Virus record (IMG/VR): IMGVR_UViG_2548876854_000015
Location: 1-19,781 of that record
Strand: one strand, 5' to 3'
Source of the DNA: a virus
Lineage: Duplodnaviria; Heunggongvirae; Uroviricota; Caudoviricetes
DNA length: 19,781 nucleotides
Below, in pieces: positions 1,561 through 17,790 of this stretch; the first letter of the stretch is position 1, and every line of letters begins with the position of its first letter. Position numbers and translations under genes: made by a program. A model generated the notes under the pieces. The model made no database searches and was not told the DNA's origin. It saw only the letters and a program-made list of their open reading frames with translations.

Positions 1561-1588
1561 AATAAAAAAAACCGCCAGATATGGCGGT
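1561..1588 (-). terminator. Intrinsic terminator on minus strand (candidate tR'-like terminator upstream of lysis genes)
   Basis: Perfect 7-bp stem ACCGCCA/TGGCGGT with a 4-nt loop, followed on the minus strand by a U9 tract (plus-strand aataaaaaaa at 1561-1570). Confidence 0.6.
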
Positions 1589-1953: not shown

Positions 1954-2028
<75 letters not shown>

Positions 2029-2031
2029 ATA

Positions 2032-2107
<76 letters not shown>

Positions 2108-2340
2108 ATTGGTTCTTCAGGGGAGCGATATCACCGTTCAAAGAAGAGTTCCCCCTCAGAACCGTTTTCGATGATACGATTTAATATTCCAATCGCAACA
2201 ACAGCTTGCGTCAAGTTATGTAAATTTATTTATATGTTTTTATTTTATGTAAATAATTCACTTTCACTTAAAATATATACAACAACATATAAATAAATTT
2301 ATTTTGAAGGCGATGATTAAATGTCGTTTCTGATATCACA

Positions 2341-2375
2341 CCACAGAAACAACAAAACCCGCTCGATGGCGGGTT
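2341..2375 (-). terminator. Intrinsic terminator-like hairpin about 85 nt downstream of the Q-like gene
   Basis: 7-bp stem AACCCGC/GCGGGTT with loop tcgatg, followed on the minus strand by TTTTGTTGTTT. Confidence 0.45.
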
Positions 2376-2460
2376 CTATTAAAGTTTAATTGCGCTTGAT
2401 TCGCCTCGCGATACAGCTTTGCGAAGCGTAGCAAAATTGAAGCAGTTTATGCGTAAAAAA

Positions 2461-3003
2461 TCAAGCCGTTTTTTGAGCGAATGATTCTCGCATGGGAATG
2501 TATAGCGCATACTCAGCAACGGCCAACCAATTAGCAATTCGCTTTTCGCATGTGCTAAAACACCACTCTGGGTGTGCATCATTTAGCAATTCAGCCATTT
2601 TGCGTTTGGTCATCCCCCGCCCCTCATACCGTTGCCGAAGGACGCTAATCAATCCTGGATGCTCTGCCAGCACCTCACTTATGACCCGATCAATACATAA
2701 CGCCTCTGCATCAGTACAATGCGCCAGCCAGCTCTTTTGCTTACCGTTAATCATATCCCGCAAAAAAGCCTCAAGTTCAGACTTGTTCAGACCTGCTTTT
2801 TTCATCCTCCGGAGCGCCTCGTTAATTGCCGTTTTTGTCAGCTTTTTAGAGGCCAACAACTGGTTGAACATATTCCCCGTCTTACCGCCGCCAATATACG
2901 ACCAGCGCCCCCACATACGTAGTTTTCCCTGAATCCAGACACTTTCCAGCGTGGTGAGACGAAGGTGTTCTCCGCTTTTTCCTGTATTCGTTGGGTAAAT
3001 CAT
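2461..3003 (-). CDS. Putative late-gene antiterminator (Q-like) by position; family not recognised
   Basis: 180-aa ORF from the ATG at 3003 (MIYPTNTGKSGEHL...), preceded by AGGAGG. Its ATG overlaps the stop of the upstream ybcO-like gene (ATGA). Lies between nin-like genes and the tRNA/lysis region, where lambdoid Q sits. Sequence does not resemble lambda Q as I recall it. Confidence 0.45.
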   Translation of the reverse strand: MIYPTNTGKSGEHLRLTTLESVWIQGKLRMWGRWSYIGGGKTGNMFNQLLASKKLTKTAINEALRRMKKAGLNKSELEAFLRDMINGKQKSWLAHCTDAEALCIDRVISEVLAEHPGLISVLRQRYEGRGMTKRKMAELLNDAHPEWCFSTCEKRIANWLAVAEYALYIPMRESFAQKTA

Positions 3004-3290
3004 AAATATCCCTCCTTTCTCCAGATTTCTTGTGTGCGAAGAACACCTTCTGCATGCATCAGGCGTAATTCTTCTTTGGTGTAATCGATGGTTTTTACCC
3101 GCCCGTCGATTAGATCGTGGCATGAGCTACAGGCAATCGCCGCCTGCATATCGTGTGGTTTTGTCGCTGTTCCGCACGTTCCCGCCAGTCGGTAATGCGC
3201 CAGCACAGACGTTTCCGGATCGTGATTGCAGTAGCCAGGAATTCTGACGGTGCACATCTGCCCCCGCGCCGCTTTACGTAAATCCACCAT
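3000..3290 (-). CDS. ybcO: YbcO-like DUF1364 putative nuclease (nin region)
   Basis: 96-aa MVDLRKAARGQMCTVRIPGYCNHDPETSVLAH...CSSCHDLIDGR with a Cys/His cluster, resembling DLP12 YbcO from memory. Start overlaps the stop of the upstream gene. Confidence 0.7.
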   Translation of the reverse strand: MVDLRKAARGQMCTVRIPGYCNHDPETSVLAHYRLAGTCGTATKPHDMQAAIACSSCHDLIDGRVKTIDYTKEELRLMHAEGVLRTQEIWRKEGYL

Positions 3291-3889
3291 TACGCAAACT
3301 CCAGCAGCTGCGCGGCCACATTTTCGACTTGTTCCGGAGAGGAAAATTTACGGAACAGAATCCAGTTCCACAGCACATTCAGAACAGATTTATAAACCTG
3401 CTGAAACTCGGTTTCGTCCATATTCGCAAAAGCGATGGATTTCGCCCGACGCCCATGGCTACCGTCCGGATAAAAATGTTCGGTGTAAAATCCAGCCTGA
3501 ATGGTTACCCACTCGCGAAAAGCCTCAAACGACTTTAACAATGCCGTATCCCGGGTTCTGCGTGTCGCAACTGTATTCAGATATTGCTCTGCGGCATCAC
3601 TCAGGGCTGGCGTGTGTTCCCGACCAACTGATTCGCACAGGTAATCAACGAAACCAGACAGCAGTTCTCGTTCGCGAGGCGTGATCGCCCCACCGACCGG
3701 AGTCCAGTAATCGAATCCCAGTTGCAGGAGTTTGAAAAAACGCTTGTGGAATGCGTAGTTACGCACACGCTTAAAGTCTGCGTGTATCCACTCGCCTATT
3801 TTGATTTGATGCAGAAAATCACAACTCTCCGGCGTCGCCGGGAGAAGTAATCCGGAAGAGGTTTGTTTGACCAGTTGTATATGCGCCAT
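3290..3889 (-). CDS. Phage protein, DUF1367-like (nin-region neighbour of DUF1364)
   Basis: 199-aa ORF MAHIQLVKQTSSGLLLPATPESCDF...; family assignment is from memory of the DUF1367/DUF1364 gene pair and is unverified. Confidence 0.45.
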   Translation of the reverse strand: MAHIQLVKQTSSGLLLPATPESCDFLHQIKIGEWIHADFKRVRNYAFHKRFFKLLQLGFDYWTPVGGAITPRERELLSGFVDYLCESVGREHTPALSDAAEQYLNTVATRRTRDTALLKSFEAFREWVTIQAGFYTEHFYPDGSHGRRAKSIAFANMDETEFQQVYKSVLNVLWNWILFRKFSSPEQVENVAAQLLEFA

Positions 3890-4162
3890 TTCTCAATCTC
3901 TCGATGGCGCAGCGCAGCAGATGCCAGTTGTTCAGGCTGACGTATGAAGTATAAATAAACTGGCTCCAGTGTAAAGCCCCCACCTTAATGGAATAAAAAC
4001 CAAACAACAGATTGCTGGGATACAAACAACGCTTATTATTAAAAGCGGTTAAACAAATTAAATTTTAATGTTATGCAAATTTGTCAGATCACCATAATAT
4101 CTCATTTGAAAACCGCTGAAATAACAACCCTATCAGGGTTAATCATATTAAGGTGAGTAAAT

Positions 4163-4249
4163 ATGGAAAACAACAAATCTGCACATTACGTTCCTTTTTT
4201 ATCTGTAATACTTTTTGTTTTATGCTGTGCGTGGGCATTATTTTTATAA
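4163..4249 (+). CDS. Candidate 28-aa hydrophobic small protein (MENNKSAHYVPFLSVILFVLCCAWALFL)
   Basis: ATG with SD AGGTGAG 7 nt upstream; single predicted TM helix. Sits in the otherwise non-coding gap between hok and the DUF1367-like gene. No homolog recognised. Confidence 0.2.
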   Translation: MENNKSAHYVPFLSVILFVLCCAWALFL

Positions 4250-4357
4250 AAATATTCACAGATAAAATATACCCGCCAAAGCTGGTTAAGTGCGGGTGCG
4301 TTGAGGATGCCTGACACATCAGAGGTGGCGGGAGATTACTCTCCCGCCTGGTCACTC

Positions 4358-4513
4358 TTACTCTCTAGATTCGTAGTCTACGAAGACAGCGACCTCCGTC
4401 TGGCCGGTTCGGATTCGCACCTCGCAGAGGTCTTTCCTCGTTACCAGTGCCGTCACTATGACGGTTAAACAGATGACGATCAGGGCGATTAACATCGCCT
4501 TTTGCTGCTTCAT
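4358..4513 (-). CDS. hok: Hok/Gef-family type I toxin (51 aa)
   Basis: MKQQKAMLIALIVICLTVIVTALVTRKDLCEVRIRTGQTEVAVF... matches the Hok family almost residue for residue from memory. The GC-rich hairpin GGCGGGAG/CTCCCGCC at 4327-4348, just 3' of the stop, is consistent with a hok mRNA 3' stem. Confidence 0.9.
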   Translation of the reverse strand: MKQQKAMLIALIVICLTVIVTALVTRKDLCEVRIRTGQTEVAVFVDYESRE

Positions 4514-4940
4514 AGCCTGCTTCTCCTTGCCTTTCGGCACGTAAGAGGCTAACCTACATGTGTTCAGCATGGATTGAGCCTCAGATTAATGTTAAGCGTC
4601 CTGCAAGACGCGTAATGTTAACTGGGGCTTTTCTCTATCTGCCTTTTGGTGTTCATGCCTGAGACAGATAGCCTCAAGCACCCGCAGCGATTTTTACTTA
4701 ACTCTTCTTTTCACGCAAACCGTTTTTATCCTCAACGTAAATTTTACCAATATCGCCTAACACATCTCCCCTGCCCTGACGATGCTTACCTCTTTACACA
4801 GCCCCCTATTTATGTATTATCTTTTACAAACAACCAGTTAAGAGCTATCGGTGGGTGGGTTCGCCCTGCGGTAGCTTTTCCTTTATACATTGCATCTATT
4901 TATGTTCTAGTATATTCCTATATGTTCAAAAGGACTTTTC

Positions 4941-5873
4941 ATGCACAGCGTTAATTTCTATTCATTCCGCGTATTGACCCATAAAGGCAGTCGAGCCAGC
5001 AAAAAGCTTAATGAATTGGGTTTAAGTAATAAAAAAACGGCATATGAACTTTTTGTTGATTATTTTACTCTATATAAAAACACCCCCATCGAGTTTGGCG
5101 TATCCAAAACTAAAATATCTCTAGAACAACACGCTAAACTTCACTTTGATAACACAAAGAAAATTATATATGGTTATATAAAAGTTGGGAAATATGGAGA
5201 AAGTAGTGAAATAAAGGATGTAAAACTCAAAAAAATCCACTACAGGACAACTGCTTATGATGTAACACTCAAAGAACGTTATATTTTAATATACCTACCA
5301 GACACCCTTGAAGAAGGAATTATTGCATTCCATTCTTGCGATAATATTTCTGCTCGAGGTGTCCTTTCTGATTCTATCACTGAATATCTAAAAAACAAAT
5401 TTCAACTCGAAGCAAGAATCAATCCATTACATCATAAGAAAATCCCTCAATATATTCTCAATTCCGAATTAAAACAAATTAAGGCTCAAGGATATAAAGC
5501 ACCAAAAGACATTACTGATTCCTTTGGTCAAAACAAAACAAACATCAAGACAGACTTAATAATAAAAGCAAACGATGGCATGTTCGGAAGTTTCAGGGAT
5601 TTAAGAAACAAGAATATAGGAAACATCATTGAGATTATTGAAGATAAATGTGATGCAATAAAAGTAAGCTTACAGCTCGGCAGTCGGACTGTCGTTTTCA
5701 ATTATGATACCATACTAAAAAAAGGAATTTCCGCAGAGTTAGATGATAATGATCTAAAAATCGACCCATTAACAGGCATACCTGATCTAACAGCACTTCA
5801 TGACACGATAAAAAACCTTTCTAATGATATATTGTTAGAACTGCATAGCGGAAACAAAGGGGTGATCATATGA
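4941..5873 (+). CDS. Unknown 310-aa soluble Lys/Asn-rich protein; first gene of the AT-rich cassette
   Basis: Long ORF with SD AAGGA 6 nt before the ATG. About 30% G+C by hand count (19/60 in one line) against about 53% in a flanking phage line (32/60). No catalytic motif recognised. Confidence 0.7.
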   Translation: MHSVNFYSFRVLTHKGSRASKKLNELGLSNKKTAYELFVDYFTLYKNTPIEFGVSKTKISLEQHAKLHFDNTKKIIYGYIKVGKYGESSEIKDVKLKKIHYRTTAYDVTLKERYILIYLPDTLEEGIIAFHSCDNISARGVLSDSITEYLKNKFQLEARINPLHHKKIPQYILNSELKQIKAQGYKAPKDITDSFGQNKTNIKTDLIIKANDGMFGSFRDLRNKNIGNIIEIIEDKCDAIKVSLQLGSRTVVFNYDTILKKGISAELDDNDLKIDPLTGIPDLTALHDTIKNLSNDILLELHSGNKGVII

Positions 5874-6424
5874 ATAAAATAAATGTGCTGGGTGTAATAA
5901 TAAAACACTACAAAACAATGTCAGATCAGCGTGGAACAATGTTGATGAGCGACATTATCGTACATTTTATTGTTCCGCTATCTCTTTCTTTCGTTCTGTG
6001 CTGGACATACGGAATAATGAAACCGGCAATTGCTTCCGTCTTCGTTAACTTCGGGGCTATTACAACAGCACTATTAATGAGTGCAGTAATAATGATTTAT
6101 GAACAAAAACAAAAAACCATTACTAAGATATCAGACATAATTGAAGGACACAAATCCCGAGACAAATTGATATCATTAAACACTAACAAAACCATATATG
6201 AGCAGTTATGCCACAACGTCGCTTATGCAATATTAACTTCAATAGTATTGGTTATATTTTCAGTGATAATATATTTCCTGCCTGACAATGCAGTGGATTT
6301 AATGAAATGGTATTTTCGCGCACCTGCATATATTGTTAGCTTTTTAGCCTATACATCCTTTTTTATCACTGTTATAACGTTCTTAATGGTAATCAAAAGG
6401 TTTAGCACAATTTTAGATAATTGA
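5870..6424 (+). CDS. Unknown 184-aa integral membrane protein (4 predicted TM helices); second gene of the cassette
   Basis: ATG overlaps the upstream stop (ATGA at 5870-5873) with SD GGGGTG. Hydrophobic segments IIVHFIVPLSLSFVLCWTYGI, AIASVFVNFGAITTALLMSAVIMIY, VAYAILTSIVLVIFSVIIYFL, YIVSFLAYTSFFITVITFLMVI. 18/60 G+C in one line. Confidence 0.7.
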   Translation: MNKINVLGVIIKHYKTMSDQRGTMLMSDIIVHFIVPLSLSFVLCWTYGIMKPAIASVFVNFGAITTALLMSAVIMIYEQKQKTITKISDIIEGHKSRDKLISLNTNKTIYEQLCHNVAYAILTSIVLVIFSVIIYFLPDNAVDLMKWYFRAPAYIVSFLAYTSFFITVITFLMVIKRFSTILDN

Positions 6425-6435
6425 ACAGCGGAACA

Positions 6436-6467
6436 GCCGCCCTTTCGGGCGGCCTCCTGATGTTTTG
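6436..6467 (+). terminator. Hairpin GCCGCCC-tttc-GGGCGGC after the cassette, possible terminator
   Basis: Perfect 7-bp GC-rich stem 12 nt after the cassette stop; the downstream T-run is interrupted (ctcctgatgttttg). Confidence 0.4.
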
Positions 6468-6557
6468 AGGGTGCAGGAACCCCTCCGGTTAAGGATTTAA
6501 TAAAAATCACTTCTGATTTAAATTTTCAGTGTTTTGTTGTCAGGTGATTTATCGCCT

Positions 6558-6869
6558 TTACGCTTCAGCTTTATTTCGCAACCAGACACAAACCGGGCCA
6601 TCTTCGGTGTCATGTATTGAACCAATAAACCATCCATCGCCCTCTGGTCGTTCCGGTTCCCATGCAGAAATATCAGCATCACAAGCATCAAAGTCAGCAC
6701 ATCCTTCGTCTCTGAAGCAGAGGACGTATTGAAGTTTATTTTCCTCCATCCATGCGTTAAACTCTTCCGTTGAAATATGTTCTCTACCATCACAGAATTT
6801 TTCATATTCAGGATGCGTCCAGCAGCCATATTCATCACGTACTACTGGTATTTCTCTAATTTCTTTCAT
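6558..6869 (-). CDS. Unknown acidic Cys-containing 103-aa phage protein
   Basis: MKEIREIPVVRDEYGCWTHPEYEKFCDG... with SD GGGAGAA 6 nt upstream. About 28 Asp/Glu against about 10 Lys/Arg by hand count. Confidence 0.6.
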   Translation of the reverse strand: MKEIREIPVVRDEYGCWTHPEYEKFCDGREHISTEEFNAWMEENKLQYVLCFRDEGCADFDACDADISAWEPERPEGDGWFIGSIHDTEDGPVCVWLRNKAEA

Positions 6870-7119
6870 TTCTGTTCTCCCACGTTTTCAGACTTTCACC
6901 ACAGAACGGGCAAAAACACATTGCAACACCACGACCGATATATTGCCCAGAGTGAATTTGAGCAATATCTATGCCTGACTCGCCGGTGTTTATGTTCACA
7001 CGTTCCGGGATAAATATGCCTTTACTCTTGAATGTTGGATTTCCATATTCGAGAGATTTTGCCAAAGCCGCGCACGGTTCTATCTTGTTGCCATTAACCT
7101 GACATTTTGATGCGTTCAC
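6856..7119 (-). CDS. Unknown 87-aa protein with C-terminal CxCxxC motif
   Basis: Start taken at GTG 7119, overlapping the upstream stop (GTGA), with a strong SD AGGAGGT 6 nt upstream. The ATG at 7197 would overlap the upstream gene by 82 nt and has no SD. Confidence 0.5.
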   Translation of the reverse strand: MNASKCQVNGNKIEPCAALAKSLEYGNPTFKSKGIFIPERVNINTGESGIDIAQIHSGQYIGRGVAMCFCPFCGESLKTWENRNERN

Positions 7120-7532
7120 AGTACCACCTCCTGAAAATTTCCCTGATAGAAATCCAGTACACGCTGCATAGCTTCGCTCTGACGGCACTCGCGACAAATT
7201 ATGTTCTGTCGTCTGTTGTAACAGCGTATTTCACCATCCGGCAATGAATAAATCAGCTCGGGGTCTCTCTTCTTTTTCGCTGTACCTTTCGACATCTCTT
7301 TACGGGCCTTTATCCAGTCCTTGCGCGCCTGCTCCGAAGGAAATATCCCGTGCCCCGAACCATATACTATGCCACTGCCCACCAGCTCTTTCGCCAGAAC
7401 TTCTATCAGGTGTCTCGTTGCTCCGGTTTCATCTTCCAGTTGCTTACGCGTTTTCCTCCCGTCTCTGCGCACCAGTTCCACAATACGCGCCTTCAGTTGC
7501 TCCCGGTATTCAGGTGTAAAAACGTTTCTCAT
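7116..7532 (-). CDS. Unknown 138-aa phage protein
   Basis: Start taken at ATG 7532 (MRNVFTPEYREQLKARIVELV...) with SD GTGAGG, 7 nt after the upstream stop. The longer ORF from 7589 overlaps the upstream gene. Confidence 0.55.
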   Translation of the reverse strand: MRNVFTPEYREQLKARIVELVRRDGRKTRKQLEDETGATRHLIEVLAKELVGSGIVYGSGHGIFPSEQARKDWIKARKEMSKGTAKKKRDPELIYSLPDGEIRCYNRRQNIICRECRQSEAMQRVLDFYQGNFQEVVL

Positions 7533-7539
7533 AAGCGCC

Positions 7540-8301
7540 TCACTTTTCCAACACAACGCGACTGGTGGAATCGACAATCTGTCGGACAATATCCCGGTGT
7601 TTATTCAGCTCCCGCAGTGCGGCGCAGACACGCTCCCACTTCTGGACATGATTTTTCGCCCGGCGCAGTTCGCGGTTTGCCAGATGCAGCGATGGTAAAA
7701 TCAGGTCATCCGCCCGCGTTTCGGTGAACGATGGCAGCGACTGCACAATGTCCGCCACAGTTCCTGTTTTAATTTCTTCCTGTATTGCAGCTTCCTGTGC
7801 TGGTAACGCAACACCTGCTGGCTGAGGAAAGGCTTTACCATCAGTTTCCGTTACCAATGCAGCTTTCGGCTCTGCTGGTAAATTATCGTCCGGCATGCAG
7901 TAACGAAATTTACCGTTCTGATTTACGCGAATCAGGCGACCTTTGCTGATTGCCTGAGCCAACGTTGAAGCCACTTTGCGTGATGTGATACCGAACAGCG
8001 TAGCCAGCTCATCAGCCGTTTGTGGTCCGCGTTGTTCAATCGTCGCGGTTAAATCGCACTCTGAGATTTTCGCTACTGTTGCCGTGGTGGTTTCTTCCGG
8101 CAGTTCTGCCTGCTCTGGCTGTTCCTGCTGAACGTTGTTATCAGCCACACGCCAGGTGTATACGCTTTTATCAACGAAGCCAGCCTTTTTAAGTTCCCAC
8201 AGCTCGTTCAGCACTTCTTCACGACTGATATCAAGTCGCGCAGCCAGTTCTACCGACGTGGCTTTTCCCATTGCTTTCAGTACATCAAAAACGGTTTCCA
8301 T
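7540..8301 (-). CDS. ydaW: YdaW-like (DUF1627) protein, apparently full length
   Basis: [45 protein letters not shown]... N-terminus as in Rac ydaW from memory; SD GGGAGGAAA. K-12 ydaW is a truncated pseudogene. Confidence 0.65.
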
Positions 8302-8323
8302 TAAAATTTCCTCCCGGTAAAAA

Positions 8324-9070
8324 TCACTTCGCAATTCCTGGCTGGACGACATTCGGACGCCAGCTCTCCCAGTTAAAATTCACCCATCGCCCGCCGTTCA
8401 TGGTCATGCGATCCATAATCCGCTCGCCGAGCAATGTTTTCATGGCCTCATAGTTCAGGTTTGTCAGCATCCCCACGCTGCGCATCGACGCTGTCCGGCG
8501 ATCAACAATCTGGTGCAGCACCACCTGCTCGTTTTTTGTCTCGCGCTGAATGCCAATTTCATCAAGAACCAGCAGATCCACTTGGCACAGTTCCCGCAAA
8601 AATTTTTCGCCTGATTGCCCGTCGTCATAGCTGGCGTGTAGAGCACTCATGACATCAGCCACGGTAACCACAATCACTGTCTGGCCATCTTTCAGCAGGC
8701 GATTCCCGATAGCCGCCGCCAGATGGTTTTTTCCGGTACCAGGTTTTCCGCTGAACGCAAAATTTGTACACCCGGTCATCAGTTCATCAGCGATAGATTT
8801 CGCCTGGTTCAACGCGTATCGCTGACCGTCGTTCTGCACCTGGTAATTCGCAAACGAGCATTTGCGGTGCAATGGCTGGATGCCAGAGCGATTCAGAATT
8901 TTTTCCACCCGCAACTGACGATTCTGACGGTTGATCTCCTCACAACGTTTCTGGCCTTCGGAAAGTTGCCACTCGCGCCACTCCGCTACCGTTTTGAATG
9001 GGGCGGTTACATGTGGCGGGGCCAGTCTGCGGATACGTTCAAGAATGCCTCCTGCCGCAATATTTTTCAT
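8324..9070 (-). CDS. ydaV: DnaC-like replication/helicase-loader ATPase (YdaV)
   Basis: 248-aa ORF with Walker [12 protein letters not shown] and Walker B LLVLDEIG, directly downstream of ydaU. Length matches K-12 YdaV. Confidence 0.85.
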
Positions 9071-9076
9071 GGTCAG

Positions 9077-9934
9077 TTACCCCCTGAAGCCTGGCGGGAT
9101 CGCACTATCCGGTAACGAGACGGTGTTAACCTGTCGGAGTAACGTCTCAGGTCGAACACCTTTTGGCGCGAACAAGCCCTGGTATTCATTGGCGATGCTG
9201 TGTCGAATCACCTGCTCAGGTGAAAAACCCTGCTGGCGGAATTTTTCCAGCTCCCGTATCGCCCCGTTAGCGCCCTGCTCCGTTCGAATCGGTTTACGCA
9301 ATGCCTGGCGAAATTCAACCCACTCACGCCAGAGCGAGACAGAAATCCAGTTCGGCAAAGCAATATCCAGAGGGTCAAACTTTTTGACACCTCGATTCCC
9401 CCGGGGGGGATTTAGGGGGGGATCTGTTTTTAGATCTTTATCTGTATCTTTATTAGTTGCCTTTGTGTTGACATCATGTTCAAACACCACTTCAACATCT
9501 GTTTGAACACCTGTTAAATTTCTCTCTTGTTTTGTTTGAACATCTGCTTCCTTTCTGCTTCTTCTGGCCTGAACCGATGCTTTTCCTGCGGCTGATTTTT
9601 TGGTTAATTTTTCCCTGACTGATGCCAGATCTTCCTCAATCCGAAGATGCACCCATTCCTCGCCGTTATCGCAAAAAAACTCCCGCAAGGACGGTTCAAC
9701 ATCAGCCCATCGCTCGTTAGTCAGACGGGCAATTTTTGCCAGCCTGTTTTTAGGTATTGGCTTTCCTGTTTGCCAGTAATTGAACATCAGCAACAAATAC
9801 GCACCATGCTCCTCTGCTGACAAATGCATGGTGTCAGCCAGGTAATCAGCTATGTACAGTTGCATGTATGGTAATGCGGCCATAATTGCCCCGTATGATG
9901 CTGCCCGATTGCTTAGAATAAGCACAAACAGCAT
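9077..9934 (-). CDS. ydaU: Replication initiator, O-like (YdaU, DUF1376)
   Basis: 285-aa ORF containing MAALPYMQLYIADYLADTMHLSAEEHGAYLLL, matching K-12 YdaU length. An alternative start at ATG 9883 is possible. Low-complexity linker in the middle. Confidence 0.8.
   Translation of the reverse strand: MLFVLILSNRAASYGAIMAALPYMQLYIADYLADTMHLSAEEHGAYLLLMFNYWQTGKPIPKNRLAKIARLTNERWADVEPSLREFFCDNGEEWVHLRIEEDLASVREKLTKKSAAGKASVQARRSRKEADVQTKQERNLTGVQTDVEVVFEHDVNTKATNKDTDKDLKTDPPLNPPRGNRGVKKFDPLDIALPNWISVSLWREWVEFRQALRKPIRTEQGANGAIRELEKFRQQGFSPEQVIRHSIANEYQGLFAPKGVRPETLLRQVNTVSLPDSAIPPGFRG
9370..9545. repeat. Ori-like iterons and palindromes inside the ydaU linker region
   Basis: Three copies of a 10-bp palindromic core (TGTTCAAACA at 9477-9486; TGTTTGAACA at 9500-9509 and 9533-9542), plus GTCAAActtTTTGAC, CCCCCGGGGGGG and GATCTgtttttAGATC nearby. 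Confidence 0.45.
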
Positions 9935-9946
9935 GGAAACTTTTGC

Positions 9947-10369
9947 TTAATGAACAATGACAGAATCGTCGGAAGACCCGCCGCCGCTGAAATGCGCTTT
10001 CCGGTAAACGGCCTGGACTGCATCATCATGCGCATCAATTGCCGTACTTAACGCTTCCTGCGCCGCCAGTAATGCACGGCGTTCCAGGGTATCGAAGATG
10101 CAGAGTCGGTGACGCAGCTCGCGAGGAAGAATTGCCAGAACCGCAGGGATCAATTTCTGAATTTTTTCCCTTTGCGCATTCGTTTCACCTTTCAACCAAC
10201 GGTGATAGATATTCTGCTGATTGTTCCAGTCCTTGCCTGGAACCAGGGGCAATTCGCCGCCCCCCTGGCGCAGATATTCTTCAGTAATGGCATTGGCTAC
10301 CCATGCCTGCCCTTTTTCGGCTGCTAGGGCAAACAACACTGATTCGATGTGCTCATGCTTGATTTTCAT
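9947..10369 (-). CDS. ydaT: YdaT (cII-position early protein, toxic on derepression in Rac)
   Basis: 140-aa MKIKHEHIESVLFALAAEKGQAWVANAIT..., matches K-12 YdaT in length and sequence from memory. Confidence 0.85.
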   Translation of the reverse strand: MKIKHEHIESVLFALAAEKGQAWVANAITEEYLRQGGGELPLVPGKDWNNQQNIYHRWLKGETNAQREKIQKLIPAVLAILPRELRHRLCIFDTLERRALLAAQEALSTAIDAHDDAVQAVYRKAHFSGGGSSDDSVIVH

Positions 10370-10391
10370 GAATCATTTGCCTCTTGATGTT

Positions 10392-10688
10392 TCAGGTATG
10401 ATCAAATGAGGATTTGTTACTGTCATTTAGTTGCTTCACTGACATATTCTGCGAACAACATGCCGAACGTCGTAAATATGACCAGTCAATATCAGGACGA
10501 AGTTCTTCGCACAGAACCTCACCTCTTGTTGCACGTTCAATTGCTGGACATCTCTCGGCAGGCAATTGACGTACCCCTTTGATCCATTGATTTACGCTTG
10601 GAGGTGATACACCTAAAAGCCTAGCCATTGCTGATTGCCCACCGACAACAGCACAAGCTTGCTTGAATGAATAGTTCTCTTTTTTCAT
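10392..10688 (-). CDS. ydaS: YdaS (Cro-like HTH regulator)
   Basis: 98-aa MKKENYSFKQACAVVGGQSAMARLLGVSPPSVNQWIKG..., HTH; transcribed divergently from racR. Confidence 0.85.
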   Translation of the reverse strand: MKKENYSFKQACAVVGGQSAMARLLGVSPPSVNQWIKGVRQLPAERCPAIERATRGEVLCEELRPDIDWSYLRRSACCSQNMSVKQLNDSNKSSFDHT

Positions 10689-10715
10689 CGAATGAACTCC
10701 AAAAACACACAGAAA

Positions 10716-10792
10716 TATTAGGCGACGCCTAATATAAATGTCAATAGGCTATGCCTAATGCAATGAGGGTAGGGATTGCCTAATGCAATGAG
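10716..10792. promoter_or_regulatory. racR/ydaS divergent operator region
   Basis: Perfect palindrome TATTAGGCG-a-CGCCTAATA (10716-10734), TAGGC-tat-GCCTA (10745-10757), and a 16/17 direct repeat ATGCCTAATGCAATGAG / TTGCCTAATGCAATGAG (10751-10767 and 10776-10792). Shared half-site TTAGGC. Confidence 0.6.
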
Positions 10793-10811
10793 CATAGGAG
10801 AATATTAAGCA

Positions 10812-11288
10812 ATGCTTAGTGGTAAAGACTTAGGCCGAGCGATAGAGCAGGCCATTAACAAAAAAATCGCATCGGGATCCGTCAAATCAAAGGCGGAGGT
10901 CGCACGCCACTTCAAAGTCCAACCACCATCAATTTATGACTGGATTAAGAAAGGCTCCATAAGTAAAGATAAACTTCCAGAATTATGGCGTTTCTTTTCT
11001 GATGTTGTTGGTCCAGAGCATTGGGGGCTTAACGAATACCCCATACCAACCCCCACCAATTCAGATACAAAAAGTGAACTTTTAGATATAAACAACCTTT
11101 ATCAAGCAGCCTCTGATGAAATAAGAGCGATTGTAGCTTTCCTGTTATCTGGAAATGCTACAGAACCAGATTGGGTTGACCACGATGTTCGCGCCTACAT
11201 AGCAGCGATGGAAATGAAAGTGGGTAAGTATCTGAAAGCTCTAGAATCTGAACGGAAAAGCCAGAACATCACAAAAACTGGAACTTAA
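10812..11288 (+). CDS. racR: RacR prophage repressor (CI-like)
   Basis: 158-aa MLSGKDLGRAIEQAINKKIASGSVKSKAEVARHFKVQPPSIYDWIKKG..., N-terminal HTH; matches K-12 RacR length. Confidence 0.9.
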   Translation: MLSGKDLGRAIEQAINKKIASGSVKSKAEVARHFKVQPPSIYDWIKKGSISKDKLPELWRFFSDVVGPEHWGLNEYPIPTPTNSDTKSELLDINNLYQAASDEIRAIVAFLLSGNATEPDWVDHDVRAYIAAMEMKVGKYLKALESERKSQNITKTGT

Positions 11289-11360
11289 ACTTATATGGTC
11301 TGACGGAAAACTCCTGGATTCCGTTATTTAACCCCCCATCACTTTCTCCTGTCGTCATCA

Positions 11361-11425
11361 CCTATTAGGTTACGCTCAAAACATTAGGCATAGCCTATTG
11401 ACAATCAATTAGGCATTACCTATAG
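11361..11425. promoter_or_regulatory. Second operator-like cluster, inverted copy of the racR/ydaS operator, upstream of ydaG-ydaF
   Basis: ATTAGGCATAGCCTATTGACA (11383-11403) is the exact reverse complement of 10739-10759; further TTAGGC/TTAGGT half-sites at 11364-11370 and 11409-11414. Confidence 0.5.
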
Positions 11426-11595
11426 TTCCAGCATACCACCCACCCCGCCCCACAGAACGCCTGGCAATACTTCGAGTTACCAGGCCGTGGTAAGGGGTTA
11501 AGTAGCCAGCCCGAGGCGTATGAACATGACGGCGGGATTCAAATTTTGCAGTGCAGCAGTTAGTTCCGCCACCCGGCGTTAAGGGGAGAGATAAG

Positions 11596-11730
11596 ATGGT
11601 GCATTACGAAGTAGTTCAGTATTTGATGGATTGTTGCGGCATCACTTACAACCAGGCTGTGCAGGCTTTACGCAGCAACGACTGGGATCTCTGGCAGGCA
11701 GAAGCCTCTATCCGCAACAACAAGATGTGA
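11596..11730 (+). CDS. ydaG: YdaG small protein (44 aa)
   Basis: MVHYEVVQYLMDCCGITYNQAVQALRSNDWDLWQAEASIRNNKM, SD GGGGAGAG; below the 60-aa cut-off of the ORF track, translated by hand. Confidence 0.7.
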   Translation: MVHYEVVQYLMDCCGITYNQAVQALRSNDWDLWQAEASIRNNKM

Positions 11731-11740
11731 GGTGCGAAAA

Positions 11741-11896
11741 ATGCAAAAAATCGACCTCGGCAATAACGAATCCATGGTGTGCGGCGTGTTCCCCAACCAA
11801 GATGGAACGTTCACTGCTATGACGTATACCAAAAGCAAAACATTTAAAACCGAAACTGGTGCGCGCCGATGGTTGGAGAAGCACACAGTAAGCTAA
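11741..11896 (+). CDS. ydaF: YdaF small protein (51 aa)
   Basis: MQKIDLGNNESMVCGVFPNQDGTFTAMTYTKSKTFKTETGARRWLEKHTVS, translated by hand; 3' end overlaps the sieB stop convergently. Confidence 0.7.
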   Translation: MQKIDLGNNESMVCGVFPNQDGTFTAMTYTKSKTFKTETGARRWLEKHTVS

Positions 11897-12381
11897 CGAT
11901 TAAAACGTCTACTCCTGCTGTTCCAGAATAACTTCATAAAATGGGAGTATTTTTCGGTGACGAGATAATAAGAACAGTTTGCGCTATCACTCTGATGTTG
12001 AATGATGCCCTTCCGTTCTAATTTTTTCATAACCGGGTTACGGCAAGGAGAAGTGATAATAAGATTTCCGGTTTTAAGGAAATCTTTAAATACAGCTATT
12101 TCTTTCTCAGATAAACGAAGCAATACTCGTTGCTCTGGTAGTAATGAATAATGCTTTTGAATATGTGCTCGCAATCTTGAGAAGGAAATGGCGACCACGA
12201 AAGAAAAGGCAAAAACGATAATCTGAAAGAGCCAAGGTATTTCAGTATAAGCATTGAATGCGACAGTAAACTCTTTCGGTATCAGCCAGAGAGTGAGGCC
12301 AAAAATGATAATCGTATACATAAGTCTTTCGAGTGGCTCGTTAGCAAAAAGTTTCAACAATGGAGTAAATACATCCAACAT
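11893..12381 (-). CDS. sieB: SieB superinfection-exclusion membrane protein
   Basis: 162 aa from MLDVFTPLLKLFANEPLERLMYTIIIFGLTLWLIPKEF... with TM segments. The 203-aa upstream extension is rejected. Confidence 0.85.
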   Translation of the reverse strand: MLDVFTPLLKLFANEPLERLMYTIIIFGLTLWLIPKEFTVAFNAYTEIPWLFQIIVFAFSFVVAISFSRLRAHIQKHYSLLPEQRVLLRLSEKEIAVFKDFLKTGNLIITSPCRNPVMKKLERKGIIQHQSDSANCSYYLVTEKYSHFMKLFWNSRSRRFNR

Positions 12382-12599
12382 ATCAATAACTCTCAACTGT
12401 AAGGGTATTGAAATGTTAACACAAGCTCTCGCTGTAGGGGTATAGCCGAGACCACCGAAGCCCGGAGGTGGTGAAATAAAACTGGGCGCAACACGAAGGC
12501 GCATTTCCGATATCCATAAAGAGTCGGTCTTGTCTGTTAAATTTAAATGGTGGGAGTGCGCCTCCGGTTGTAAATAACGACATTGCTGTGTGTAGTCTT

Positions 12600-12646
12600 G
12601 GCGGCATCAGTTTTTTCTTGAAGTTCGGCTGATGTCCGCCCTTTTT
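12600..12646 (+). other. Long-loop hairpin GGCGGCATCAG...CTGATG(T)CCGCC followed by CTTTTT, upstream of kilR
   Basis: 11-bp stem with one bulge and an 18-nt loop, then a T5 run. Could attenuate read-through from the immunity region into the kil operon. Confidence 0.3.
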
Positions 12647-12811
12647 AAAGTGAATTTTGTGATGCGGTGAATGCGGCTAAGCGCACGCGGAACAGTTAAA
12701 AGCATCAGTGTTATGGGGGGATTATCCGGCGTTAATTGTTAACTGGTTAACGTCACCTGGAGGCACCAGGCACCGCATCAACAAAGTTCATTTGTGAAAA
12801 TGGAGATAATT

Positions 12812-13033
12812 ATGATTGCTCATCACTTCGGAACTGATGAAATACCTCGTCAGTGTGTGACTCCTGGTGATTATGTTCTTCATAACGGCCGGACATATAT
12901 TGCCTCGGCAAACAATATTAAAAAGCGAAAACTTTATATTCGAAACCTGACCACAAAAACATGCATTACTGACTGCATGATTAAAGTCTTCCTCGGTCGT
13001 GATGGTTTACCTGTAAAGGCGGAGTCATGGTGA
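12812..13033 (+). CDS. kilR: KilR (FtsZ/cell-division inhibitor)
   Basis: 73-aa [46 protein letters not shown]..., SD GGAG 7 nt upstream. Confidence 0.85.
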
Positions 13034-13203
13034 TGACTAAGAAAATAAAATGTGCTTACCACCTTTGCGATAAAGAAGTTAAAGAAAGCAAAAGCATTAA
13101 AAGACCACTTCATTTCATGCGTGGAGTTATCCCAACGACGGAAATGAAAAAATATTGTAGTGAAATATGTGCCGAAAAAGACCAGATGGCACACGAACTT
13201 TAA
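13033..13203 (+). CDS. ydaE: YdaE small Cys-rich zinc-binding protein (56 aa)
   Basis: [56 protein letters not shown], translated by hand; start overlaps the kilR stop. Alternative in-frame ATG at 13027. Confidence 0.7.
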   Translation: MTKKIKCAYHLCDKEVKESKSIKRPLHFMRGVIPTTEMKKYCSEICAEKDQMAHEL

Positions 13204-13277
13204 TTAACTGACTATGCGAAACTGAATTTATGCCAGCAATGGCAGGGATTCGCTCAACCTTAATTAAGGAGAAAAAC

Positions 13278-13553
13278 ATGATTACCAGTTATGAAGCCAC
13301 TGTTGTAACTACTGATGACATTGTTCACGAAGTTAATCTGGAAGGAAAGCGTATTGGCTACGTGATTAAAACAGAAAATAAAGAAACCCCATTCACTGTG
13401 GTTGATATCGACGGTCCATCAGGCAACGTTAAAACACTTCACGAAGGTGTCAAAAAAATGTGCCTGGTGCATACCGGAAAGAATCTGCCCGCAGAAAAAA
13501 AAGCCGAATTTCTGGCAACTCTAATTGCAATGAAATTAAAAGGTGAAATCTGA
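13278..13553 (+). CDS. racC: RacC
   Basis: 91 aa from MITSYEATVVTTDDIVHEVNLEGKRIGYVIKTENKETPF..., SD AAGGAG. Confidence 0.85.
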   Translation: MITSYEATVVTTDDIVHEVNLEGKRIGYVIKTENKETPFTVVDIDGPSGNVKTLHEGVKKMCLVHTGKNLPAEKKAEFLATLIAMKLKGEI

Positions 13554-13558
13554 AAGAA

Positions 13559-13583
13559 ATAGCCTGCGTATGACGCAGGCTAT
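13559..13583. other. Perfect 11-bp inverted repeat with 3-nt loop between racC and recE
   Basis: atagcctgcgt-atg-acgcaggctat, 6 nt after the racC stop. No U-tract on the plus side; a TTCTTTC-type run follows on the minus side. Confidence 0.4.
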
Positions 13584-13654
13584 GAACAGTGTGTATCCGG
13601 CAAGATCATTCACTGAACAAAACGAATTTTAATCTGAGTTGAGGTTAAAAAACA

Positions 13655-16600
13655 ATGAGCACAAAACCACTCTTCCTGTTACGGAAAGCGAAAAAATCAT
13701 CCGGTGAACCTGACGTCGTCCTGTGGGCAAGCGACGATTTTGAATCGACCTGTGCCACTCTGGACTACCTGATCGTTAAGTCAGGTAAAAAACTGAGCAG
13801 CTATTTTAAAGCTGTTGCCACGAATTTTCCTGTCGTTAATGACCTGCCCGCTGAAGGTGAGATCGATTTTACCTGGAGTGAACGCTATCAACTCAGCAAA
13901 GACTCCATGACATGGGAACTAAAACCGGGAGCAGCACCAGACAACGCTCACTATCAAGGCAATACCAACGTCAACGGCGAAGACATGACTGAGATTGAGG
14001 AGAATATGCTACTCCCAATTTCTGGCCAGGAACTGCCCATTCGTTGGCTTGCTCAACACGGCAGCGAAAAACCGGTAACGCACGTTTCACGCGACGGACT
14101 CCAGGCATTACACATTGCTCGGGCTGAAGAACTACCGGCTGTTACTGCCCTGGCTGTTTCCCACAAAACCAGCCTGCTCGACCCGCTGGAAATTCGCGAT
14201 CTCCACAAACTGGTTCGTGACACTGACAAAGTTTTCCCTAATCCTGGTAATTCAAACCTGGGACTGATAACTGCTTTTTTCGAAGCATACCTGAACGCTG
14301 ACTACACCGATCGAGGACTGCTGACAAAAGAGTGGATGAAGGGTAATCGTGTTTCACACATCACTCGCACGGCTTCCGGTGCTAATGCTGGCGGCGGAAA
14401 CCTCACCGATCGCGGCGAAGGTTTCGTACACGATCTGACGTCACTGGCGCGCGACGTAGCCACTGGCGTACTGGCCCGTTCAATGGATCTGGACATCTAT
14501 AACCTTCATCCGGCACACGCTAAACGCATTGAGGAAATTATCGCTGAAAATAAACCGCCCTTTTCTGTTTTCCGCGACAAATTCATCACCATGCCTGGCG
14601 GGCTGGATTATTCCCGCGCCATCGTGGTTGCGTCCGTAAAAGAAGCACCAATTGGGATCGAGGTCATCCCCGCGCACGTCACTGAATATCTGAACAAAGT
14701 ACTGACTGAAACCGATCATGCCAACCCTGATCCGGAAATCGTGGATATTGCCTGCGGTCGCTCCTCTGCCCCGATGCCGCAGCGAGTAACAGAAGAAGGA
14801 AAACAGGATGATGAAGAAAAACCGCAACCATCTGGAACAACGGCAGTTGAACAGGGAGAGGCTGAAACAATGGAACCGGAGGCAACTGAACATCATCAGG
14901 ACACGCAGCCGCTGGATGCTCAGTCACAGGTAAATTCTGTTGATGCGAAATATCAGGAACTGCGGGCAGAACTCCATGAAGCCCGGAAAAACATTCCATC
15001 AAAAAATCCTGTCGATGCCGATAAATTGCTTGCTGCATCACGTGGTGAATTTGTTGACGGAATTAGCGACCCGAACGATCCGAAATGGGTTAAGGGGATC
15101 CAGACTCGCGATTCTGTGTACCAGAACCAGCCAGAAACGGAAAAAACCAGCCCGGATGTGAAACAACCTGAGGCAGTAGTGCAACAGGAACCGGAAATAG
15201 TCTGCAATGCCTGCGGTCAGACTGGCGGAGATAACTGCCCTGACTGTGGGGCGGTGACGGGCGACGCAACATACCAGGAAACATTCGATGAAGAGAATCA
15301 GGTTGAAGCTAAGGAAAAAGATCCGGTGGAAATGGAAGGCGCTGAACATCCGCACAATGAGAATGCTGGCAGCGATCCGCATCGTGATTGCAGTGATGAA
15401 ACTGGTGAAGCGTCAGCTCCTGTAGCAACTGAAATCATGTGGCCGTCATATTTCGAGCCTGGCCGCTATGAAAACCTCCCGAACGAGGTTTATCACTCCG
15501 CCAACGGAATAAGCAGCACGATGCTGAAGGATGCCCGTATCAGCCTGATGTATTACCACGGACGGCACATTGCCGGAACTATTCCGAACGAGGAAAGTGA
15601 TGCACTGCTGCGTGGGCGGATCATTCACAGCTATGTTCTGGAAACGGATAAATTCGCTGATGAATATGCCATTCCGGTACCGGTTCCTGAATATGTGGTT
15701 ACTACTTCTAGCGAACTGATCGCCATCATTAAAAAACACAATGCCAGTCTGCCAGCACTGATGACACCAGAGCAGATGAAAGAGTGGATCGAAAGCTACA
15801 ACAGCACTCTTATACAGCCACTGTCTGTAAGTGCCGGGGCCGAAGAAACAGGCATCCTTTACGGTTCGCTTCCGGTGGAATTTCGGCGTATTCCTGAGGG
15901 GGAAAAACACACAGCATCAGCAATGAAAGCCTGTATTAAAGAATACAACGCAAGCCTCCCTCCTCTGTTGAAAACCAGTGGAGCACGGGAGCAGCTTCTG
16001 GATCAAATTGAAACTGTAGCCCCAGAACTGGCAAAAAAAGAACGTGCTAAATCTTTGCCTTACAACATCAGTGGCACAAAAGAGCAATTAACCGAAATCG
16101 CACGGAAAATTCGCCCGGAACTGGTGACACTGGAGGACTGGCAAAAACGCCAGCAAGAAGAAAATGCCGGGAAAACGTTTATCAGTCCGGAGATGTATGA
16201 ACAGGCAAAAAATATTCACGCGGCACTGCAAAACAATACCGATGCAGCAAGGCTACTCAACCACCCGGATCGCAAATCTGAAATCAGCTATTTCGGGTTT
16301 GATGAAGAAACCGGGCTGGAAATCAGGGTCCGTCCTGATATCGAAATCCGGCTGCCATACGAAAGCATTTGCGCTGACGTGAAGTCAGTCAGCCTCGGTT
16401 ATGTGCGACAGGAACGACTTAAAGATCGCCTGCACCGTGAAATTATTGAGCGTGATTATCACCTCAGCGCCGCAATGTATTGCGATGTGGCAAACCTGGA
16501 CAAATTTTTCTGGATCTTCGTCAACAAAGATGCTGGCTATCACTGGGTGGCAGTCGTGGAAGCCTCGCAGGAACTCCTGGAACTTGGTCGACAGGAATAT

Positions 16601-16726
16601 CGCCGGACGCTACGCCAGATAAACGAAGCCCTGGAGACAAACAACTGGCCAGCACCGATTACCGAAAGTTATACCGACGAATTAAACGACTTTGATCTTC
16701 GTCGTCTTGAAGCACTGAGCATCTGA
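13655..16726 (+). CDS. recE: RecE-family exonuclease VIII, 1023 aa, with divergent expanded C-terminal nuclease region
   Basis: The first roughly 590 aa are near-identical to K-12 RecE as I recall it. The C-terminal part is only distantly alignable to the RecE nuclease core (RVRPDIEIR...ICADVKSVS against RCRPDKIIPE...IMDVKTTAD) and carries an extra segment of about 150 aa with an internal repeat ([10 protein letters not shown] / [11 protein letters not shown]). Confidence 0.85.
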
Positions 16727-16737
16727 GGAAGGACACA

Positions 16738-17790
16738 ATGAACGAATTAACTCAACAAGAAAATATTAACTCTAATGTTGCGGTTTTCAGCCCTCAGTCC
16801 CTGGCTGCAATTCAGACATTTTCCCAGGTAATGGCTTCCGGCATGGCTACTGTACCGGAACACCTCCGGGGAAATCCATCAGACTGCATGGCCATCACCA
16901 TGCAGGCGATGCAGTGGCAAATGAACCCTTACGCAGTAGCTCAGAAAACTTTCGTTGTGAATGGTGTGCTCGGATATGAAGCGCAACTGGTTAATGCCGT
17001 AATCAGTACTCGTGGGCCGCTAACCGGGCGTATTGAATATGACTGGTTCGGGCCGTGGGAAAAAATTATCGGGAAATTTGAAATCAGGAAGAGCGACAAA
17101 GGGAAAGAATATCGTGTACCTGGCTGGAAGCTGGCCGATGAAAACGGGATCGGTGTTCGTGTCCAGGCAACACTACGCGGCGAAAGTAAACCACGCGTAC
17201 TGGAATTACTTCTGGCGCAGGCCAGAACACGTAACTCAACGCTATGGGCCGACGATCCTCGCCAGCAGCTTGCCTATCTAGCGCTGAAACGCTGGGCGCG
17301 CCTTTATTGCCCCGAAGTGATTCTTGGAGTGTACACCAGGGACGAACTGGACGAGCCACAGGAAAAAATCATTAATCCGGTTCAGGAACATAAAAACACT
17401 TCCGCTTGCCGCGCGGAACGTGAAACAACAATTATTGAGCAGGATGCCGGGGAAAACTGGATCGATGCTTTCCGTGAACGTATTGAGCAGGCACAAAGCA
17501 CCGGGGAAACAACAGCACTTCGCCAGGAAGTGGAAGATCATAAAAATACACTTGGCGCTCTCTATACGGAACTTAAAGGAAAAGTGGTTCAGCGTCATCA
17601 CCGTCTCAATGCTATTGCCCGTATCGAGAAGATGATAAATGACCTACCTTCTTCAGGTGATCCAGAAGCAGAACAAAAATTTACTGCTCTGGAAAATACG
17701 CTGAATGCTGCCCGGCCACATCTGGGTGAATTATATGAGGCGTATAAAACGACACTGACAGATATGAAACCAGAATATATCGGCTCCTGA
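16738..17790 (+). CDS. Putative single-strand annealing protein in the RecT position; family not recognised
   Basis: 350-aa ORF immediately after the recE-like gene with SD GAGGAAGGA. Sequence does not match K-12 RecT (269 aa) as I recall it; function inferred from position only. Confidence 0.45.
   Translation: MNELTQQENINSNVAVFSPQSLAAIQTFSQVMASGMATVPEHLRGNPSDCMAITMQAMQWQMNPYAVAQKTFVVNGVLGYEAQLVNAVISTRGPLTGRIEYDWFGPWEKIIGKFEIRKSDKGKEYRVPGWKLADENGIGVRVQATLRGESKPRVLELLLAQARTRNSTLWADDPRQQLAYLALKRWARLYCPEVILGVYTRDELDEPQEKIINPVQEHKNTSACRAERETTIIEQDAGENWIDAFRERIEQAQSTGETTALRQEVEDHKNTLGALYTELKGKVVQRHHRLNAIARIEKMINDLPSSGDPEAEQKFTALENTLNAARPHLGELYEAYKTTLTDMKPEYIGS

Follow-up and report, generated by a model that had tools for sequence, protein, structure and literature searches.

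The 19,781-bp stretch of DNA analysed here, IMG/VR record IMGVR_UViG_2548876854_000015 (positions 1 to 19,781; hereafter the window), is a Rac-type prophage of Escherichia coli. The segment 9398–9545, within the linker-coding part of the gene ydaU, is very probably the core of the Rac replication origin, oriJ. On sequence comparison, this origin is most likely built in the lambda style, inside the gene of its initiator; that initiator would be a winged-helix (DUF1376) protein that is not homologous to lambda O and ends in a DnaT-like adaptor. The initial annotation of the window had read the segment as the prophage origin, and that reading now has comparative support from selection acting on the DNA, from conservation in relatives, from the linkage of the repeats to one module of the initiator, from the match to lambda and from the gene context.

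The repeat array in ydaU

The window contains exactly three perfect copies of TGTTYRAACA (9477–9486, 9500–9509 and 9533–9542), within a span of 66 bp. The initial annotation had noted three such copies within 70 bp, and their clustering is not a matter of chance: 0.17 matches are expected per whole window under a dinucleotide-preserving shuffle, and three were reached in none of 200 shuffles. On the window strand the letters are TGTTCAAACA at 9477–9486 and TGTTTGAACA at both 9500–9509 and 9533–9542. Allowing two mismatches was uninformative, with 40 matches against 39.6 expected and nothing gained locally. The half-sites TGTT and AACA number ten in 9460–9550, compared with a mean of 1.15 per 91 bp, the highest value anywhere in the window. 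Partial sites at 9466–9475, 9488–9497 and 9512–9521, read from the sequence, complete a lattice with a step of 11–12 bp. The three iterons recognized previously are thus genuine perfect copies, but only part of a lattice of six to seven sites. On the coding strand the array runs GCAGA-TGTTCAAACA-(23 nt with AACA)-TGTTCAAACA-GA-TGTTGAAGTG-G-TGTTTGAACA-TGA-TGTCAACACA, and its sites, in the order of ydaU transcription, are as follows.

9533–9542, minus strand: iteron core 1, coding strand TGTTCAAACA; exact match, first along ydaU transcription, in a four-codon insertion specific to the Rac type
9512–9521, minus strand: partial site, coding strand AAATTTAACA; AACA half-site only, corresponding to the conserved AACG half-site of relatives
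9500–9509, minus strand: iteron core 2, coding strand TGTTCAAACA; exact match, orthologous to the family-wide cGTTCAACgg
9488–9497, minus strand: degenerate site, coding strand TGTTGAAGTG; orthologous to the GTTgA block of the family
9477–9486, minus strand: iteron core 3, coding strand TGTTTGAACA; exact match with the asymmetric centre opposite, orthologous to the family cCGTT(T/G)GAACA
9466–9475, minus strand: degenerate site, coding strand GATGTCAACA; orthologous to the AACg block of the family

Two of the perfect copies share a reading frame, in which they encode V-Q-T. The third is inverted, lies in another frame and encodes (V)FEH, and the repeat is therefore a feature of the DNA and not of the peptide. 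No further iteron-like array was found in 6500–12500, where the other repeats are immunity-region operators only. The DnaA box TTWTNCACA has no match anywhere in the window, and we therefore claim no involvement of DnaA. A consensus scan detected no internal promoter in ydaU, terminator-like matches did not exceed the shuffle expectation, and no Rfam family was recognized in or near the gene.

The A+T-rich block and the C/G runs

Next to the array on the downstream side of the coding strand are two further elements.

9421–9465, minus strand: A+T-rich block, proposed DNA-unwinding element, coding strand ...GGCAACTAATAAAGATACAGATAAAGATCTAAAAACAGATC; G+C content 0.31, compared with 0.48 for the gene
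9398–9421, minus strand: C7-TAAAT-C7-G5 runs, coding strand CCCCCCCTAAATCCCCCCCGGGGG, with the palindrome CCCCCGGGGG; they encode PPLNPPRG, the start of the C-terminal module

The A+T-rich block includes two GATC sites (9421–9424 and 9433–9436) and hexamer repeats, for which Tandem Repeats Finder reported a period of six at 9434–9453. The G+C content drops to 0.34 at 9450–9549, and the least stable 40-bp duplex of the ydaS–ydaV module is located at around 9420–9460, within the lowest 1.8% of the window.

The C/G runs at 9398–9421 and their palindrome, mentioned in the initial annotation as additional palindromes and G/C homopolymers, were confirmed. They are the boundary of the origin zone and are frameshift-prone. 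In strain 95-3192 (L003:1501-2369), an 11-nt duplication (CCCCCCTAAAT) and a frameshift in the runs have turned ydaU into a pseudogene, and this allele also lacks one repeat core, where it reads TGTTCAAAAA. In one IMG/VR haplotype a single nucleotide is deleted from the run. A similar sequence, CCCCCTAAATCCCCC, is present in two E. coli initiators with another N-domain (L006 and L007, described below) and in a Bordetella phage.

The GATC sites of the A+T-rich block (AAAGATCT motifs) number one to three in enteric hosts. In Pseudomonas prophages the block is replaced by GAAGAG purine runs with no or one GATC. This distribution fits the restriction of Dam methylation to enteric bacteria and may point to an origin controlled by Dam, like those of the host (oriC) and of P1.

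Codon conservation where the peptide diverges

For comparison, 28 loci were retrieved from one-genome-per-species contigs, and 16 non-redundant DUF1376 genes with the same linker architecture were aligned by codon; they come from genera including Escherichia, Citrobacter, Enterobacter, Kluyvera, Pantoea, Klebsiella, Buttiauxella and Pseudomonas. Amino-acid identity and the use of identical codons in pairs with the same residue were as follows.

N-domain: amino-acid identity 0.81; identical-codon use 0.52
Repeat zone: amino-acid identity 0.45; identical-codon use 0.81
A+T-rich block: amino-acid identity 0.58; identical-codon use 0.90

Corrected for amino-acid composition, the repeat zone and the A+T-rich block together use identical codons in 0.84 of same-residue pairs, compared with 0.54 expected; for the A+T-rich block alone the values are 0.90 and 0.60. 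For the two regions together the excess is 0.31, whereas 5000 random column sets reached no more than 0.079 and contiguous control windows no more than 0.098. The peptide thus diverges while the codons are fixed; constraint on the peptide, or a recent transfer, would leave the reverse pattern. To judge by codon use in these aligned genes, the comparison shows purifying selection at the DNA level on both the repeat zone and the A+T-rich block.

The column consensus is AACG..cGTTCAACgg..GTTgA....cCGTT.gaa ca..a.g..AACg..AA.. for the array and CAAC.AATAaAGAt.cagAtA.AgAt...cTAAaAgA for the A+T-rich part, and across the genera conserved words alternate with free spacers. The Rac core at 9477–9486 is orthologous to a family-wide YGTTKGAACA. 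The outer position is T (TGTT/AACA) in Rac, in its allele L005 and in Citrobacter braakii, and C (CGTT/AACG) in most others. In the sequences compared, no residue emerged that cleanly separates the N-domains of the TGTT type from those of the CGTT type, the former being represented by Rac, L005 and L013 only.

Within the species, 51 E. coli and IMG/VR haplotypes were compared descriptively, this sample having low power and a gapped Citrobacter row distorting the polymorphism test. The sole change in core 2 is a T>C substitution giving CGTTCAAACA, and the sole variant of core 3, TGTTCGAACA, still fits the pattern, while the spacers between the cores are highly polymorphic. At the site 9488–9497 the TGTTG half is kept and the flank is highly polymorphic in E. 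coli; at 9466–9475 AACACA is kept and GATGTC varies.

The array in distant relatives

The initial annotation had named conservation among relatives as a test of its reading, and a related array with an A+T-rich block is found at the same place in DUF1376 genes of distant phages. These genes, whose N-domains are 27–55% identical to that of YdaU, have the same plan, equally far from the start codon. In Moraxella Mcat30, copies of CCGTTCAAC lie at nt 384, 395, 417 and 428 (11-bp spacing), followed by an A+T-rich stretch, and Bordetella IFTN6 has five 11-bp units followed by (AACCAG)4, an A-rich stretch and CCCCCTAACCCCC. In Pseudomonas UFJF_PfDIW6, CGTTGAA is located at 183, 194 and 208 and also at 366, 375 and 386, with a purine-rich run after it; Pseudomonas AH02 has AACG words and then (ACAGAT)5. 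In an Acinetobacter phage, these two places are occupied by tandem copies of a different word (CGAATGGGTTC).

A second, upstream cluster exists in most of the enteric and Pseudomonas genes. In the relatives L015–L034 it reads AACGAcCGtTGG-N5-CGTTGAA-N3-TCGTTG, with three copies of CGTTG at exactly 11 bp. It sits in codons 56–66 (window 9683–9718), which are predicted to encode the recognition helix and in which the identical-codon fraction is 0.82, compared with 0.47 expected. Rac has a single remnant of this cluster, so that its role there is uncertain.

9694–9701, minus strand: possible outlying site, coding strand TGTTGAAC; sole Rac remnant of the upstream cluster

One subgroup (L028, L030, L031 and L032) has a DUF1376 domain that is 65–78% identical, and a T5orf172/MUG113 domain replaces the disordered linker. 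These genes contain CCGTAG/CTACGG palindromic repeats, such as CCGTAGTAGCTACG, that are conserved within the T5orf172 coding sequence (around 2800–3050). The repeats of this subgroup may form an alternative origin that is read by another domain.

Natural domain swaps and loader linkage

Megablast of ydaU against 5,426 complete E. coli genomes revealed that the gene is mosaic, with breakpoints at query positions 258 and 362–365 (the latter being window 9438–9441, within the A+T-rich block). The allele of ECO2947 (L005) has the Rac N-module at 95% nucleotide identity, with all three cores intact despite mutated flanks, joined to another C-terminal half that has a Pfam DnaT domain and an acidic tail; a lambda-P-like gene takes the place of ydaV. 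The reverse combination is found in KFu024 and 98197 (L006 and L007), which have the Rac C-domain and ydaV with an unrelated N-domain lacking any Pfam match. At the equivalent mid-gene place these two genes carry a different repeat, GCGTTAC/GTAACGC, with the palindrome GGTAACGCTGCCAGCGTTAC. The same repeat is recognized at around nt 145–185 and around nt 320–420 of both genes (L006:1501-2295 and L007:1501-2289). From their sequences, they look like a second, uncharacterised initiator–origin specificity of E. coli prophages.

A DnaC-like gene comes next in all 15 loci whose initiator has the tail P(D/E)xxIP(P/D)GFRG. In six loci the next gene is P-like; none of these initiators has that tail, and four have an acidic one. 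The type of C-terminal tail agrees with the type of loader in every locus examined (about 25). Taken together with the chimeras L005–L007, this agreement indicates that the repeats are inherited together with the N-module, and the loader together with the C-terminal tail; the T5orf172 subgroup, with other repeats beside a similar DUF1376 domain, qualifies this linkage. In lambda, the N-domain of O binds ori and the C-domain binds P, and the linkage of N-module to repeat and of C-module to loader in the ydaU chimeras follows the same logic.

The YdaU protein

The annotated 285-amino-acid YdaU probably starts 17 codons too early. The real start is probably M18, with the ATG at 9883, because all relatives and the ECO2947 allele begin with MAALPYMQLY and profile matches begin at residues 18–22. 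Residues are counted from M18 in the AlphaFold model, which was built from an alignment of 101 sequences. Residues 1–123 are modelled with a predicted local distance difference test score (pLDDT) of 95–98 and have a helix-helix-helix-helix-beta topology with a long exit helix. Residues 124–179 have no secondary structure (pLDDT 39–55), and a helical C-domain follows them. The residues encoded by the cores lie in or adjoin this disordered segment, which bears out the earlier placement of the repeats in the linker-coding part of the gene. Foldseek searches with the model gave weak matches only, nearly all of them to winged-helix DNA binders, and as modelled the N-domain takes a winged-helix fold.

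In a Pfam scan of YdaU (E value of 0.01 or better) DUF1376 was the only match, and the lambda O family gave none. PHROGs describes YdaU as a 'primosomal protein' and assigns 'replication initiation O-like' to the C-terminal half only (residues 112–259). The 'O-like' of the initial annotation therefore holds in the sense of an analogue, but not of a homologue, since the N-domain is DUF1376.

The C-terminus of YdaU aligns with the C-terminal domain of DnaT, including the motif ...NTVSxPDSxIPPGFRG (PDB 2ru8 and 9zbt), and sister alleles match the Pfam family DnaT (PF17948). The tail, ...NTVSLPDSAIPPGFRG (9077–9130), is near-identical to the C-terminal end of E. coli DnaT. Because, in the loci examined, the DnaT-like tail is present only where the next gene is DnaC-like, the dnaT–dnaC and ydaU–ydaV pairs may share ancestry, the tail being a loader adaptor.

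Gene order and comparison with known systems

The genes around ydaU are arranged in the lambdoid order of repressor, cro, cII, initiator and loader.

10812–11288, plus strand: racR, repressor gene
10715–10744, minus strand: pR-like promoter TTGACA-18-TAATAT upstream of ydaS, by consensus scan only
10392–10688, minus strand: ydaS, Cro-like product
9947–10369, minus strand: ydaT, CII-like product
9077–9883, minus strand (open reading frame mechanically to 9934): ydaU, initiator with DUF1376 N-domain, disordered linker and DnaT-like C-domain ending in IPPGFRG
8324–9070, minus strand: ydaV, DnaC/IstB-like helicase loader, directly downstream of ydaU

In the RefSeq record of lambda, four iterons are annotated at nt 349–433 of the 900-nt O gene (fraction 0.39–0.48), and a block with a G+C content of 0.23 and a purine-rich coding strand follows them. 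In ydaU, which is 807 nt long from M18, the cores are located at nt 342–407 (0.42–0.50) and are followed by a block with a G+C content of 0.31 and an A-rich coding strand. The Rac array thus resembles lambda ori in being a set of dyad-symmetric repeats within the initiator gene, in the segment for the interdomain linker at 0.4–0.5 of its length, with A+T-rich DNA that is purine-rich on the coding strand directly after the repeats and in the same polarity. In both, the loader gene comes next, and a pR-like promoter and a cro/cII-like pair precede the module. However, the DNA-binding domain of YdaU is DUF1376 and is not homologous to O; the cores of ydaU are 9–10 bp long on an 11–12-bp lattice, whereas lambda has four iterons of 18–19 bp that are around 20–24 bp apart; and the C-domain is DnaT-like, with a DnaC-like YdaV and not lambda P as its partner (sister alleles pair with P-like genes).

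Winged-helix Rep proteins serve the iteron origins of plasmids such as pPS10, R6K and F, and of staphylococcal plasmids with RepA_N (PDB 4pta and 4pt7). Those iterons are usually 17–22 bp long and intergenic, whereas the Rac array overlaps coding sequence, and YdaU has no sequence homology to Rep families. The dnaTC operon of E. coli resembles ydaU–ydaV in that a DnaT-like C-terminus is followed by a DnaC-like gene; DnaT, in contrast, acts in PriA-dependent restart with no sequence-specific origin, and it has neither DUF1376 nor an embedded repeat array.

A model for initiation

When repression by RacR is lifted, the pR-like promoter would transcribe ydaS-ydaT-ydaU-ydaV, and this transcription would cross the origin within ydaU; by analogy with lambda pR, it may activate the origin. 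The winged-helix N-domain of YdaU (DUF1376) would bind a lattice of YGTT(N1–2)AACR sites, namely the three perfect TGTTYRAACA copies and three or four partial ones. Their spacing of 11–12 bp would place all of the sites on one face of the helix. The resulting nucleoprotein complex could destabilise the adjoining 45-bp A+T-rich block (9421–9465), whereupon the DnaT-like C-domain and the IPPGFRG tail would recruit a complex of the DnaC-like YdaV with DnaB, and the helicase would be loaded. We infer in particular that YdaU, and specifically DUF1376, reads the sites, that the A+T-rich block is where the DNA unwinds and that the tail of YdaU contacts the loader.

oriJ and alternative explanations

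oriJ was reportedly defined genetically by Diaz and Pritchard in 1978–79, and oriJ plasmids were reportedly described by Potrykus et al. in 2000. The present array is in the same prophage and the same replication module as oriJ. The legend of Fig. S3 in PMC3945230 ascribes a functional origin, oriJ, to Rac, and PMC11014345 cites work on oriJ plasmids (ref. 62). The primers that PMC3945230 published as 'oriJ' map to 8659–8677 and 8795–8813 in the window (one of them with three mismatches to the allele present here) and define a 155-bp amplicon inside ydaV; the field thus locates oriJ in the ydaUV module. A base-level definition of oriJ was not found in the literature, our coverage of which did not extend to the primary oriJ papers, where the repeats may already be noted. 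In the RefSeq record of MG1655, ydaU is described only as a 'DUF1376 domain-containing protein' and no origin feature is marked there. The literature on ydaU, ydaV and DUF1376 yielded no paper on an origin or on protein function.

Several observations weigh against placing the origin in the ydaU array. The 'oriJ' amplicon, 8659–8813, lies 660–820 bp from the array, in ydaV and not in ydaU, and the Rac of K-12 is termed 'replication-defective' in PMC11014345. Core 1 is the least conserved of the cores: it reads TGTTCAAAAA in three E. coli haplotypes, the pseudogene among them, and it is missing from relatives with 65–84% identity, where it is dispensable. The A+T-rich block is the least stable DNA only within the replication module, and the window holds DNA that is less stable. 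Finally, the repeats of the T5orf172/MUG113 subgroup differ despite a similar DUF1376, so that DUF1376 may not be the sole or actual reader of the sequence.

The array might instead be a real YdaU-binding cluster with a regulatory role, such as autorepression, copy-number control (handcuffing) or a roadblock before ydaV, the true origin lying elsewhere in Rac. Iteron clusters of plasmids often have control roles, the published amplicon maps within ydaV, and the second, upstream half-site cluster of relatives suggests more than one function. We nevertheless regard this as unlikely. A selected A+T-rich block, and a position and polarity like those of lambda ori, are requirements of an origin and not of an operator; the replication module has no other repeat array or A+T-rich candidate; and the amplicon region in ydaV, read from the sequence, is free of repeats.

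Binding by another protein (the CII-like YdaT, RacR/YdaS or a host factor) within an internal regulatory region is distinctly improbable. Such a reading could draw on the subgroup with different repeats and on the fact that binding by DUF1376 is itself deduced. However, the cores are the same in L003, L004, L005 and the window, although these carry different repressor, ydaS and ydaT alleles, and the repeats co-segregate with the N-module of the initiator. It is this constancy of the cores beside changing immunity alleles that makes another binding protein unlikely. Moreover, the RacR-type operators are unrelated in sequence (ATTAGGCnnnGCCTAAT), and the scans gave neither a promoter-like site within ydaU nor a DnaA box in the window.

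We give slightly less weight again to a hairpin in ydaU messenger RNA, formed by the inverted copies and affecting translation, stability or coupling to ydaV. The RNA of 9380–9560 (coding strand) does fold better than shuffled sequences (z = -2.7, with one of 200 as good), and the inverted cores pair. Against this, RNAalifold on the 16 relatives gave only an 8-pair structure of -4.8 kcal/mol, which derives from the palindromic half-sites themselves; several relatives have tandem repeats in the same orientation, which are poor at forming hairpins; and a hairpin, for which Rfam offers no match, leaves the conservation of the A+T-rich block, the 11-bp lattice and the upstream cluster unexplained.

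Least probable of all, and largely refuted, is that the repeats have no DNA function and are a by-product of a low-complexity or duplicated linker or of recent exchange of a recombination-prone segment: the zone does encode a disordered linker and mosaic junctions do fall at query positions 362–365 (window 9438–9441), but the third copy differs from the other two in frame and orientation, the cores are conserved while the spacers between them vary, and the tests of codon identity (peptide 0.45, codons 0.81–0.90) contradict both peptide constraint and recent transfer.

Significance of the proposed ydaU origin

Identification of 9398–9545 as the origin core would provide a base-level model for oriJ, an origin that has been known for more than 45 years in the most thoroughly studied of bacteria and is unmarked in the reference annotation. 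The architecture is that of the lambda paradigm, and the concepts are unchanged. For DUF1376, which is common in prophages of Proteobacteria, it offers a proposed function (origin-binding initiator) together with a cognate DNA site. A broader proposal, to which we give even chances, is that the YdaU/DUF1376 proteins make up a class of phage initiators that is widespread, has no relation to lambda O and is not known to have been described in this role, whose origin is a one-turn YGTT..AACR lattice plus an A+T-rich element in the codons of a disordered linker, kept from Moraxella and Bordetella phages to Rac, and whose IPPGFRG tail is an adaptor for a DnaC-type loader. If this is true, the dnaT–dnaC pair of the host would be a domesticated half of such a phage module.

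The linker would also be a case of dual coding, a disordered segment shaped mainly by overlapping DNA signals, and this calls for caution in analyses based on codons or on the ratio of nonsynonymous to synonymous substitution rates (dN/dS). Practical uses include the prediction of prophage origins, the interpretation of Rac excision and replication phenotypes, and the design of compatible replicons derived from phages.

Other features of the window

The pR-like promoter is located amid operator-like repeats. A 25-bp direct repeat, TAGGCnATGCCTAATGCAATGAGGG, occurs twice at 10745–10794 near racR, and a perfect palindrome, ATATTAGGCG-T-CGCCTAATAT, at 10715–10735 overlaps the promoter. Downstream of racR, a second repeat pair (two copies of ATTAGGCATAGCCTAT) is present at 11383–11423. 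The repeats on both sides of racR are probably operators for RacR and YdaS, as are OR and OL in lambda.

Rfam matches in the window comprise the RalA antitoxin small RNA at 18047–18225, a sok-like antitoxin RNA at 4508–4683, which implies a hok/sok-type locus, and two transfer RNA genes at 1957–2107 in the late region.

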